IMG/VR virus record: IMGVR_UViG_3300021963_000022
Strand: one strand, 5' to 3'
Source: a virus
Lineage: Duplodnaviria > Caudoviricetes
Length of the DNA: 64,000 bases
Shown here one piece after another: positions 58,935 to 61,679 of this stretch. The stretch's first letter is position 1. Each line of letters opens with the position of its first letter. The notes beneath the pieces were generated by a model. It was not told where the DNA came from. It did not search any database and worked only from the letters and a program-made list of their open reading frames with translations. A program made the translations under genes and the position numbers.

Positions 58935-61679
58935 ATGAAAATATCAAAATTATTAGAAAATCCTACCCCGTCAAGCACTAGTGACCTTAATGGAGGCGGC
59001 TTCGGTGGTCAAGCTCCTCGTTTTGGTCGTGATCCTGAAATATTAGAAGATGAGCAAATTGATGAAACAACCGCTGGCTCAACAGGAACAGGATCTGTGG
59101 GTGGAGGAGTTGCTACAGATTTAGGTATGCAACGTAGAAGTAAAGGTAGCATATTTCAAGGTGTAAGAACAAGTAAGAAGTTTGTTAATTCTCCAGTAAC
59201 AGAAGATCCATTAAAAGATAAATCATTGGATGCACTAAGTCAAGCAAAAAATGTTATTGCTCAAAAGCGTATGGCTGATTTAGAGCAATGGGAAAAAGAA
59301 TTCAAACAAAGCATGGTTAATAAACTTAAACAAAAGCCATCATTTGAACCAGTTCCAGTAAGTCAGCCCGGTGAAAAGCATTCTGTATTAAAGTCTAGAA
59401 TGTCTAATTTAGATATGGCTATTCAAAAACATCAACAAGTTGAAGCATTGGCACAAAAACTTGATAAGGTAGGAAGACTATCACCCGCAATACAATCTGC
59501 AATAGATACACGTATGCATATTAAACTTGGTCCCAAAGATAACTATCAAACATTGAATAGAAAACTTGACAGTATAATAGAGATGTTAAATAAAAATCTA
59601 AACACTTACAAAATTGCACGTAAGAAACCAAAAAAAATGCGTGAAGATGGCATAACAGCAGGTATTAATAAGTATTATGACGATAGAGCTAGTGGAGCAC
59701 TTGATCCTAGAACTGGACAAAAACAACCATACTTGCAACAATGGGCATTAAAAGTTAACGGTAAAGTAGATGGTAGTAACATCTTTAGAAGTGAACAGGC
59801 TGCAATGCTAGCAAGGTCTGCTCTTTTAAGAAAAAATCCTAATGTGCAGATTGGACTTGTAACTAGAGGTGGATTAGCCGAAGCTGATATGAATCGTAGA
59901 GATTTTATAAAAGGTGTGGGTGCGGTAGCCGCAACTGGTGCTACCGATCAAGCACAACCAACTCAAAGACAAGATTTAGGAAATAGTTTTTCTACAGCAG
60001 TAGTAGAGATTGGTGGAGTACCATTTAATGTTGTACTAGATACAGTAAGTAAATCTATCTACATGTTGAATCAAAAAAGTGATGGCACTCCTCTTGTTAA
60101 TAAGCCAGGATCATTTATCGTAATAAGGAATGGTAAATTAGAACCTAGAATGGACCTTGCTCCAAATATTATGAACGCATTACAAAAAGCAGGCTTACTA
60201 GATAAACAACAAGGTGTAAGAGAAGGTGTTAGAGATTTAGGATATGACGCACAATCTTTAATAATGAAACTACGTAGAGATGTTGAAGAAAGAAGACTAC
60301 AACCAACTAGAGAAGCAGTGTTGTCTGCGGCAAGAGAACTAGCCGGTGATATGGACTTTGCTCCTGAACTATTAGTTCGTCAAGTGTTAGGTCAAAGTGT
60401 GACGGAAGAATTCAACGGCGAATACGATGACGAAGCAGGTATGGCTGACAACAATCTTGAAACATTGCGCCGTGCTGTAGATGGTATTGATAATGTTATT
60501 GACTCAGGTGACAACTTACCTGAATGGTGCCAAGAAAAGATTGCTGTAGCTAAATCAATGTTGGTTACCGTTTGGGATTACATGAAATCTGAAGAAGAAC
60601 GTAATGGTGGTGAAAAAATTGATGAAGGTTGGGTAAAAAATGCTATAGCAAGTGCAACATTAGCTGGTGCCGCTCTTGGTGCAGGCAATGCACAAGCCGC
60701 TGACTTAGGTGGATATAATACTCAATATCTACAGGGTGTAGTGTCTGGACAAGTAGCACGACCAATGATAAGTGTAGATGCCGCTAGACAAGAATTACAA
60801 GCACGTGCTAATGGTAAGACACAAACACAAGCTCCTGCTAATACAAATGTTGCACCTCAACAGGGAACTAATCAAACTCCAAATTTAAGTGCTTACGAAA
60901 CTCGATATCTACAAGGTGTAGTGTTGGGTAAAGTACCGAGACCAACGGTAAGTGTAGATGCCGCTAGACAAGAATTACAGTTACGTGCTAGTAGTACACA
61001 ATCAGATGTTAATACTATTTCATCTCGTTGGGGTTCTAATCAACCCAACAATGCAAACGTTATTACTTCACGTGGAGTACAACGTGAAGGTATGAATGAT
61101 AATCCTAAAGTAGATTTAAGTCCTAACTATCCTAACTATTCAAAATTAGTTGGTGAATTCATTGGAATGAAAAATAATAGAGCAAGATTTTTAATTATAG
61201 ATGCTGAACTTAAACCAGGTGTACGTGAGACTGAAAAAATCTTTAGGGCTAGGACAACTAACACTCCAATCAGTATTGAAATAAGTAAAGTACGTAATCG
61301 TAACGTAGTAGAGGGTGAGTTAAGCGAAGAAAGTTTGTTAGCAAAAGAACTAGCTAATCAATTTAAATTGTTTAATAAAGCAAATGACCGTGACTTAAGT
61401 GGTAAGCCAGAAGATAGAGAAATAATAGCAAAAGAAGCGGCTCATGTACCTGGAATGGTAGATCGTATTGAAAATCAAATTACAACAAAGATAGCTAAAG
61501 AGCACCCTGAAATTATACAACAATATGGTAAACAGATTGTACAAGATGCTATTTCAAGCATTGCAGTATATCATAGACACATGAGAGAAGTAACTCCAGC
61601 TAATATAGATGATATGGTTAATGAAATCATACAACAGTTGGATAGACATTTACATATGAGAGAAGATGAAAATAGTTGA
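58935..61679 (+). CDS. 914-aa cassette polyprotein, candidate internal head protein
   Basis: GATAAATA 58904-11; MKISKLLE leader; about 10 modules separated by Glu linkers (GGLAE|A, QQGVRE|G, GQSVTE|E, KIDE|G, GVQRE|G, NVVE|G). Confidence 0.75.
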   Translation: MKISKLLENPTPSSTSDLNGGGFGGQAPRFGRDPEILEDEQIDETTAGSTGTGSVGGGVATDLGMQRRSKGSIFQGVRTSKKFVNSPVTEDPLKDKSLDALSQAKNVIAQKRMADLEQWEKEFKQSMVNKLKQKPSFEPVPVSQPGEKHSVLKSRMSNLDMAIQKHQQVEALAQKLDKVGRLSPAIQSAIDTRMHIKLGPKDNYQTLNRKLDSIIEMLNKNLNTYKIARKKPKKMREDGITAGINKYYDDRASGALDPRTGQKQPYLQQWALKVNGKVDGSNIFRSEQAAMLARSALLRKNPNVQIGLVTRGGLAEADMNRRDFIKGVGAVAATGATDQAQPTQRQDLGNSFSTAVVEIGGVPFNVVLDTVSKSIYMLNQKSDGTPLVNKPGSFIVIRNGKLEPRMDLAPNIMNALQKAGLLDKQQGVREGVRDLGYDAQSLIMKLRRDVEERRLQPTREAVLSAARELAGDMDFAPELLVRQVLGQSVTEEFNGEYDDEAGMADNNLETLRRAVDGIDNVIDSGDNLPEWCQEKIAVAKSMLVTVWDYMKSEEERNGGEKIDEGWVKNAIASATLAGAALGAGNAQAADLGGYNTQYLQGVVSGQVARPMISVDAARQELQARANGKTQTQAPANTNVAPQQGTNQTPNLSAYETRYLQGVVLGKVPRPTVSVDAARQELQLRASSTQSDVNTISSRWGSNQPNNANVITSRGVQREGMNDNPKVDLSPNYPNYSKLVGEFIGMKNNRARFLIIDAELKPGVRETEKIFRARTTNTPISIEISKVRNRNVVEGELSEESLLAKELANQFKLFNKANDRDLSGKPEDREIIAKEAAHVPGMVDRIENQITTKIAKEHPEIIQQYGKQIVQDAISSIAVYHRHMREVTPANIDDMVNEIIQQLDRHLHMREDENS
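60210..60410 (+). repeat. two degenerate junction-repeat copies bracketing a 183-bp in-frame module
   Basis: CAAGGTGTAAGAGAAG at 60210 and CAAAGTGTGACGGAAG at 60393 (14/16 to consensus). Confidence 0.65.
60725..60980 (+). repeat. internal duplication with 180-nt period (YLQGVV..RP..SVDAARQELQ.RA)
   Basis: 31-nt exact match TAAGTGTAGATGCCGCTAGACAAGAATTACA at 60769 and 60949. Confidence 0.9.

Follow-up and report, generated by a model that had tools for sequence, protein, structure and literature searches.

Why would a phage encode about ten small and dissimilar modules as one long chain, strung together by linkers that end in glutamate? The question is raised by an open reading frame at 58935..61679 (+ strand, stop included) in a 64,000-nucleotide stretch of tailed-phage DNA (IMG/VR record IMGVR_UViG_3300021963_000022), which we call the window. 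Its product of 914 amino acids (aa), P0001, had been taken in an earlier note, made from the sequence alone, for a carrier of small injected effectors. We consider it fairly probable that P0001 is a capsid-targeted cargo polyprotein of a T4-related jumbo phage and that it is cut by the prohead protease. This reading starts from what is observed, namely the open frame, its module borders and linker motif, the shuffling of its modules, a T4-type head module in a related phage and a promoter-like word in front of the gene.

The internal proteins of phage T4 are the textbook case of phage proteins that are delivered together with the DNA, and each of them has its own gene. In 1996, Mullaney and Black reportedly described IPI, IPII, IPIII and Alt as carrying an N-terminal capsid-targeting sequence that gp21 cleaves. 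The protease gp21 cuts after glutamate in a hydrophobic-x-Glu context and also fragments core proteins; from the internal proteins it removes a 10-residue targeting sequence, whose residues 8 and 10 (P3 and P1, the latter being Glu) govern processing, and fusion to this sequence leads to packaging and host delivery of any protein (PMC9026906; PMC3012670; PMC5694885).

Module borders and glutamate joints

Translation of 58935-61679 gave a protein of 914 residues that starts with MKISKLLE, as the earlier note had stated, and all eleven of the junction strings it listed were found. The candidate junction glutamates are residues 8, 44, 90, 237, 316, 430, 491, 564, 718, 793 and 834; a second copy of IAKE lies at residue 856. 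Nine of these junctions fit the motif [LIVM]-x-E, whereas those at 718 (QRE) and 834 (AKE) are off-consensus. Cuts at the eleven residues would yield 12 pieces of 8-154 aa, for which we number the modules behind the leader region M3 to M11. The isoelectric points (pI) of the pieces span 4.1 to 11.0, a strong divergence of charge. The impression that no large domain is recognisable was likewise confirmed: searches of Pfam, PHROGs, NCBIfam and PDB sequences returned only an internal twin-arginine translocation (Tat) signal, and in PHROGs there was no match at all, head and scaffold families included. An assembly artefact is ruled out as the source of the frame, since the identical 914-aa protein is encoded on four metagenomic contigs of different sources, the longest of 347,736 bp, and close variants occur on many more.

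We sought relatives of P0001 among 5.8 billion protein clusters and found 185, only twelve of them collinear with it; the rest share single blocks. In the non-collinear relatives, the blocks defined by BLAST and phmmer end at residues 89-91, 237-238, 311-316, 425-430, 487-491, 555-564, 790-793 and 834-835, and phmmer searches with the individual pieces gave envelopes exactly equal to the module length. Judged by these alignments, it is the coincidence of the glutamate sites with independently defined borders of homology blocks that exceeds what chance would provide. Among aligned homologues, Glu 8 is conserved in 27 of 27 (as LLE, LTE, LQE or LFE), Glu 44 in 14 of 17, Glu 90 in 25 of 26 and Glu 316 in 16 of 16. 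For junctions 8 and 44 this conservation is the sole support, and that for junction 718 comes from close relatives only.

The earlier note had staked its proposal on modules being found in other contexts, and they recur in many, with varying order. M6 precedes M7 in P0029 and follows it in P0026; in P0051 the leader is followed by M10 and M7, and P0014 runs from a leader through M3, M9/M10 and M7 to DUF6321. A profile search with residues 425-564 matched 1434 clusters (50% identity), 532 of them at E <1e-10, in which M6 and M7 sit at every position of carriers 81-918 aa long and are 70-90% identical. The residue preceding M6 is glutamate in 52 of 53 distinct upstream contexts and that preceding M7 in 129 of 155, contexts that partly share descent; a complete [LIVM]-x-E stands directly before M6 in 75% and before M7 in 66%, against a background of 2.2%. 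The consensus linker of the family is QGVAE/G (the slash marks the joint), and its P3 residue is mainly V, L, I or M.

Comparison with proteins 71-98% identical to P0001 places rearrangements at the same joints. A 62-aa module, itself ending in IEE, is inserted exactly after Glu 316; the segment between Glu 430 and Glu 491 is swapped for a Cys-rich 30-aa unit ending in VLE; an insertion of about 125 aa ending in GVAE follows Glu 491; and modules are also lost at these joints. Strains as close as about 95% identity differ by whole modules inserted in this way. The linkers would thus appear to double as standard in-frame joints for the gain, loss and exchange of modules between phages.

P0009-P0011 have a small Cys/His-rich unit (GKRNFKCICKTHGTMQCPIHTPKDIEVLE) in place of M6 or behind it, and other tiny, basic, Cys-containing units (RLDPKCW..GGVRVNNCVP) recur throughout the family at many protein ends, N- as well as C-terminal. 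These small units may be metal- or DNA-binding cargo.

Export signals and the modules that carry them

Residues 318-337 of P0001 (nt 59886-59945) form the Tat signal of M5, a module that begins A-D-M-N-R-R-D-F-I-K-G-V-G-A-V-A-A-T-G-A; in it the twin-arginine stretch NRRDFIK is followed by an uncharged Ala/Gly-rich one. It scores 22.7 bits with Pfam PF10518 (TAT_signal), equal to the gathering cut-off of 22.7, and 17.7 bits with NCBIfam TIGR01409 (TAT_signal_seq), whose cut-off is 16.7. M8 in turn starts with GWVKNAIASATLAGAALGAGNAQA (60627-60698, + strand), composed of GWVK, an Ala/Leu/Gly core and AQA/A, which matches the n-h-c layout of a Sec signal. These elements thus resemble bacterial Tat and Sec signal peptides, in matching curated Tat models and the Sec layout respectively, but differ from them in being internal to the precursor, where they would become N-terminal only after cuts at Glu 316 and Glu 564.

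Such signals recur behind joints throughout the family. Pfam found internal Tat signals in seven of ten other polyproteins tested, and in 248 collected proteins [LIVM]-x-E ends 3-5 residues before the arginine pair in 17/17 distinct Tat contexts (background 15%), while Sec-like starts follow [LIVM]-x-E directly in 15/15 contexts (background 6.7%). Typical signal joints are GVAE/ADMNRRGFLKG..AMAQ and VEE/GWKDKLGAAALAGSMALGAGGAQA/R. Tat and Sec signals function only near a free N-terminus, and in uncut P0001 the two lie 317 and 564 residues away from it; their position right behind joints, together with this need, provides an independent argument for cleavage at the joints. Internal translation starts for the signal-bearing modules are unlikely, since in several contexts the arginine pair lacks a preceding methionine (EIDRR, DLSRR, DISRR).

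The pieces M5 and M8 are, by these signals, probably meant for the membrane or periplasm; with two modules bearing export signals, the envelope is indicated in preference to anti-restriction of the classical cytoplasmic kind. The Sec-like stretch of M8 varies unusually little from one relative to another, and it may instead be a glycine zipper that inserts into the membrane. We raise as a tentative possibility, one we hold to be doubtful, that P0001 is injected and then exported: head maturation would expose the Tat and Sec signals, and the Tat and Sec machineries of the next host would move the pieces to the envelope.

The modules of P0001, all on the + strand, mostly lack an export signal. 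The leader MKISKLLE (residues 1-8; 58935..58958) ends in L-L-E and resembles the T4 capsid-targeting sequence. It is followed by two Gly-rich leader peptides (9-44 and 45-90; 58959..59204), which end in IDE and VTE and are probably disordered. Together these 80-90 N-terminal residues, with their two further Glu sites, are common to 32 proteins. M3 (91-237; 59205..59645) is helical and Lys-rich (pI 10.0, net charge +13), ends in MRE and is found elsewhere as a 147-aa block in 11 non-collinear proteins. M4 (238-316; 59646..59882), of mixed beta/alpha character, ends in GGLAE and occupies other positions in P0058, P0063-66, P0071 and P0102. In M5 (317-430; 59883..60224) the Tat signal precedes a beta-rich domain that ends in GVRE; the module recurs in P0018, P0019 and P0057, and a search for a stand-alone homologue of 62-200 aa found none.

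M6 (431-491; 60225..60407) is a small three-helix unit ending in SVTE, with 53 phmmer matches, each exactly 61 aa long and at any position in its carrier. M7 (492-564; 60408..60626), an acidic helical hairpin (pI 4.1, net charge -13) ending in KIDE, had 88 matches in the first phmmer search. In many cases a carrier of M6 and M7 finishes with DUF6321 or includes GP88 or DUF7230; a literature search found no paper mentioning DUF6321. Behind its signal-like start, M8 (565-718; 60627..61088) consists of a duplicated unit and ends in VQRE. The internal duplication reported earlier proved to be two 112-nt copies (60705-60816 and 60885-60996), 80% identical and with starts 180 nt apart; relatives have one or two such units. 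M9 (719-793; 61089..61313), ending in NVVE, has 11 phmmer matches and is almost wholly missing from P0011. M10 (794-834; 61314..61436), ending in IAKE, has 33, and in about 13 proteins it lies at residues ~82-126, immediately before M7, with the joint ..MAKE/A. The helical C-terminal module M11 (835-914; 61437..61676) has 16 matches, including P0015-17 and P0047 in other contexts.

Searching the protein piece by piece and modelling it, as had been suggested, recovered the recurring blocks but no known family or fold. The full-length AlphaFold model has a mean predicted local distance difference test score (pLDDT) of 42.5, too poor for fold searches; residues 1-98 are below 50, and M11 is its best part (67-82). 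All joints fall in its low-confidence stretches, which is weak evidence, as most of the chain is of low confidence. A separate model of residues 431-564, from a 58-row alignment, reached a mean pLDDT of 75.6, with three helices in M6 (439-484, pLDDT ~79-88) and the hairpin of M7 (498-557, pLDDT 84-93). Both of its ends are disordered and residues 487-500 around Glu 491 are below 50, which places Glu 430, Glu 491 and Glu 564 in exposed linkers. Foldseek searches with this model against BFVD and PDB gave nothing below E 0.05, the best BFVD match being a homologue from an uncultured phage, and nothing of use came from ESM Atlas look-ups of residues 317-430 and 91-316.

The phage, the late-promoter-like word and the variable slot

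The window is part of the genome of a jumbo myovirus with a G+C content of ~37%. The IMG/VR contig G001 (IMGVR_UViG_3300017917_001123; 331.6 kb, 93% complete) is syntenic with it: 39 proteins match in the same order, mostly at 30-67% identity. G001 has a head module in T4 order, consisting of Portal_T4, two small acidic genes, Peptidase_S77, a scaffold-position gene and Gp23, and its Peptidase_S77, of the gp21 family, matches PF03420 with 94 bits. Synteny with a genome that has this module identifies the window's phage as T4-related. The head module lies outside the 64-kb window, and the S77 gene is known from G001; to judge by the shared gene order, the window's phage probably carries the same gp21-type protease.

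The word GATAAATA (58904..58911, + strand) stands 24 nt upstream of the ATG of P0001. It occurs 16 times in the window where 5.75 occurrences are expected, a count reached by none of 100 shuffles, with sites that include 7202, 17941, 20453, 24120, 27303, 30712 and 58904. Most copies lie 13-60 nt upstream of gene starts in the sense orientation, among them the sheath, tube and fibre genes. A change of one base separates GATAAATA from TATAAATA, the late promoter of T4, which in its exact form is under-represented in the window (4 found, 11 expected). GATAAATA is probably the late promoter of the window's phage, and the same word at the sheath, tube and fibre genes suggests that P0001 is expressed late, with the virion genes.

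Linkers of the same kind are found in two other genes of the window. One (18729-19373, +) starts with MRAIEFLQE and contains the linkers QGVAE and QGMAE, with CAAGGTGTGGCGGAAGGC encoding QGVAEG at 18966; the other (49031-50851, +) encodes a HIGH-type nucleotidyltransferase with extra modules and contains QGLAE and EGVAE, with GAAGGTGTGGCGGAAGGC at 50369. The linker DNA word of P0001 is partly identical in both, and their linkers indicate that the polyprotein system is genome-wide. Other leaders of the family are MKTQDIIIAE, MKFNDFIVSE, MRITDFINSYTE and MILQELFE, which resemble the T4 targeting sequence, MKTYQEFIAE. A search with a strict regular expression for the leader found few further genes, because leaders vary (MRAIEFLQE, MKAREFISE and others). 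At 28151-30643 (+), the window encodes an 830-aa mosaic protein starting with MDFRSMLESLSQLSE, with a DUF3008-like piece at residues 269-322 (several PHROGs) and a glycine-zipper/OmpA-like piece at 663-749; it has the appearance of another polyprotein built from short modules.

The gene for P0001 has a LamG fibre-like gene on one side and, directly downstream, a gene for a Dps-like ferritin (61793-62236, +); it is outside any head cluster. In six of twelve related IMG/VR loci (L002-L005, L008, L011) an M7-bearing gene adjoins the Dps homologue, in four of them directly upstream. The polyproteins adjoining Dps are 299, 500, 665, 746 and 914 aa long and differ in leader and content. With its exchangeable modules, the P0001 gene would seem to be an array of cassettes, hypervariable in content, that occupies a conserved slot beside the Dps-like gene. 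The positional counterpart in G001 has 494 aa and shares only M7 with P0001. Just downstream of its Dps gene, G001 also encodes a 64-aa basic protein (62430-62624) that begins MKINQLLEN..., with a leader almost as in P0001; it looks like a single-module version of the cargo, similar to a T4 internal protein.

Elsewhere in the window are the genes for the tail sheath (20513-24088, +; 1191 aa) and tail tube (24783-25967), fibre-like genes, a DnaB-type helicase, a clamp loader, PhoH and a ClpA-like ATPase. The sheath protein is about twice the usual size, and its match to the sheath family is confined to the C-terminal half. A gene with a J-domain (DnaJ-like N-terminus; 44732-45496, +) adjoins that of a 758-aa ClpA/ClpB-like double-AAA ATPase (45515-47791, +); both are kept in G001, and the phage appears to have its own chaperone/unfoldase pair.

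Cargo polyprotein or another role

As a cargo polyprotein, P0001 would be transcribed late alongside the virion genes. MKISKLLE and about 80 further conserved residues would probably steer it into the core of the assembling prohead, as the capsid-targeting sequence does in T4, and a gp21-type (S77) prohead protease would probably cut it after the glutamate of each hydrophobic-x-Glu linker (QGVAE/G). In T4, an aspartate at P1 prevents such processing. About nine small proteins of 4-17 kDa would be freed, remain beside the DNA and exit the head when the phage infects, and the cuts would set the Tat signal (317-430) and the Sec-type signal (565-718) at new N-termini. Targeting, cleavage, packaging, ejection and effector activity are what we infer for P0001. 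A polyprotein with protease joints that follows the logic of T4 internal proteins is well supported by the sequences, if indirectly, and in this part the proposal of the earlier note stands. Its other part, that the pieces are anti-defence or host-takeover effectors, received no direct support, because no module matches a known family or fold.

Several observations weigh against this explanation. The leader of P0001 has 8 residues where that of T4 has 10, and its likeness to the T4 sequence is a mere resemblance; the counterpart in G001 starts without a capsid-targeting-like leader. A query with the G001 protease returned 8000 near-identical S77 proteases, and among the matches listed none came from the 347,736-bp contig. 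Neither tblastn of P0001 nor megablast of 14 kb matched any of 50,697 deposited phage genomes. Within P0001, [LIVM]-x-E is not enriched overall (20 sites, equivalent to the ~2.2% background), and junctions 718 and 834 fall outside it. The contexts of M6, M7 and the export signals partly share descent, so that the p-values overstate their independence. Lastly, the conservation of M6 and M7 (70-90% across unrelated carriers) is unlike the fast evolution of T4 internal proteins and could reflect a role in assembly.

Such a role would make P0001 a head-core or scaffold accessory like gp22, gp67 and gp68, whose cut pieces serve as filler, DNA counter-ions or assembly aids, are expelled or remain passively, and do not act as effectors. 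The same logic of targeting and cleavage would apply, as gp21 reduces T4 core proteins to short fragments (PMC5694885); several of the pieces are strongly basic or acidic (pI 10-11 or 4.1), and unusual conservation of M6 and M7 is expected if they bind conserved assembly machinery. Yet strains about 95% identical gain and lose whole modules and the proteins in the slot vary from 299 to 914 aa in length and in content, which is hard to square with an essential assembly role; a scaffold could make no use of well-formed Tat and Sec signals, PHROGs and Pfam show no similarity to head or scaffold proteins, and the gene is not in a head cluster. We therefore regard an accessory of the core as rather unlikely.

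The signals would likewise be of no use if they were never exposed, which argues against P0001 being a beads-on-a-string protein that remains uncut, in virion or cell, with the Glu linkers as flexible spacers or recombination joints. The background-level density of [LIVM]-x-E is what such a chain would show, and the linker DNA word conserved in other genes of the window could serve recombination alone. A glutamate at P1 in ~98% of M6 contexts and a hydrophobic P3 are, however, the specificity of a gp21-type protease and not the mark of a Gly/Ser spacer, and N-terminal leaders resembling the T4 targeting sequence occur across many families; an uncut chain thus seems unlikely to us. That the polyprotein is cut late by a phage or host protease and exported from the producing cell without being packaged, for instance to bring about superinfection exclusion or to time lysis, would agree with the late-promoter-like word and with Tat and Sec-type signals at module starts. 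T4-type prohead proteases, on the other hand, act within the prohead (PMC5694885), which would enclose the released pieces; most modules have no export signal, and the capsid-targeting-like leader would be left unexplained. Export in the producing cell is, on this evidence, quite improbable.

The putative cargo polyprotein of the T4-related phage can be compared with three known types of system. It resembles T4 internal proteins in a short leader ending in hydrophobic-x-Glu, small, diverse and non-conserved cargo, a variable locus and late-looking expression, and the relative G001 has an S77 protease and a T4-type head module. Unlike these, each of which is encoded by one gene, P0001 holds about ten units in one frame with repeated cleavage-type linkers; it has an 8-residue leader plus ~80 conserved residues instead of a 10-residue leader, its modules are shuffled among >1000 protein clusters, some with export signals, and it is known from sequence alone. 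Phages and conjugative elements also encode polyvalent proteins, long chains in which many modules are joined; they are predicted to be packaged and delivered together with DNA, and their parts are proposed to be released by proteolysis (PMC5512222). P0001, with its roughly ten modules, resembles these proteins (Iyer et al. 2017) in uniting unrelated modules in one chain and in their extensive shuffling. What defines polyvalent proteins, however, is the presence of known conflict domains (zincin-like peptidase, ART, MuF, ArdC, methylases and others) and, mostly, of embedded peptidases. No such domain was found in P0001 by Pfam, NCBIfam or PHROGs; its modules, of 36-154 aa, are far shorter, and the cuts would be made in trans, at a fixed linker, by the protease of the head.

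In phiKZ, 201phi2-1 and SPN3US, head and inner-body proteins are cut by an S80 protease at S/A/G-x-E sites (PMC5694885, PMC10052503). These, like the phage of P0001, are giant phages. In phiKZ-type phages many head proteins are cut after glutamate, propeptides have multiple sites, and the DNA is accompanied in the head by ejection proteins; the first 80-90 residues of P0001, with their extra Glu sites, are comparable to such multi-site propeptides (PMC5694885). The differences are the protease (S80 versus S77 in G001) and the P3 residue (S/A/G versus V/L/I/M, the latter in 66-75% of the joints of the P0001 family). Moreover, propeptides are removed there from single proteins, and nothing like a string of independent, shuffled modules is on record for these phages.

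A targeted literature search found no published description of a polyprotein like P0001, the nearest being cargo with the T4 targeting sequence and the polyvalent proteins. If our explanation is correct, the leader and the hydrophobic-x-Glu joints would provide a sequence rule for spotting virion-delivered cargo in metagenomes and would open a large catalogue of small proteins for testing against defence systems, and the linker logic could be reused for packaging several proteins in engineered T4 capsids. For the phages themselves, it would mean that among uncultured T4-type phages a group both large and abundant packages many small proteins that a single gene encodes, and that the site of the head protease acts as a universal joint which also enables in-frame swaps of modules between phages. 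Should the doubtful step of export in the next host also hold, signals that depend on cutting would be a new route by which a phage brings finished proteins into the envelope of a cell it has just infected. There the pieces could take effect seconds after infection, for instance by excluding superinfecting phages or by shielding or reshaping the envelope, and the uncultured T4-type phages would share >1000 clusters of cassettes whose joint is at once a recombination word and a protease site.

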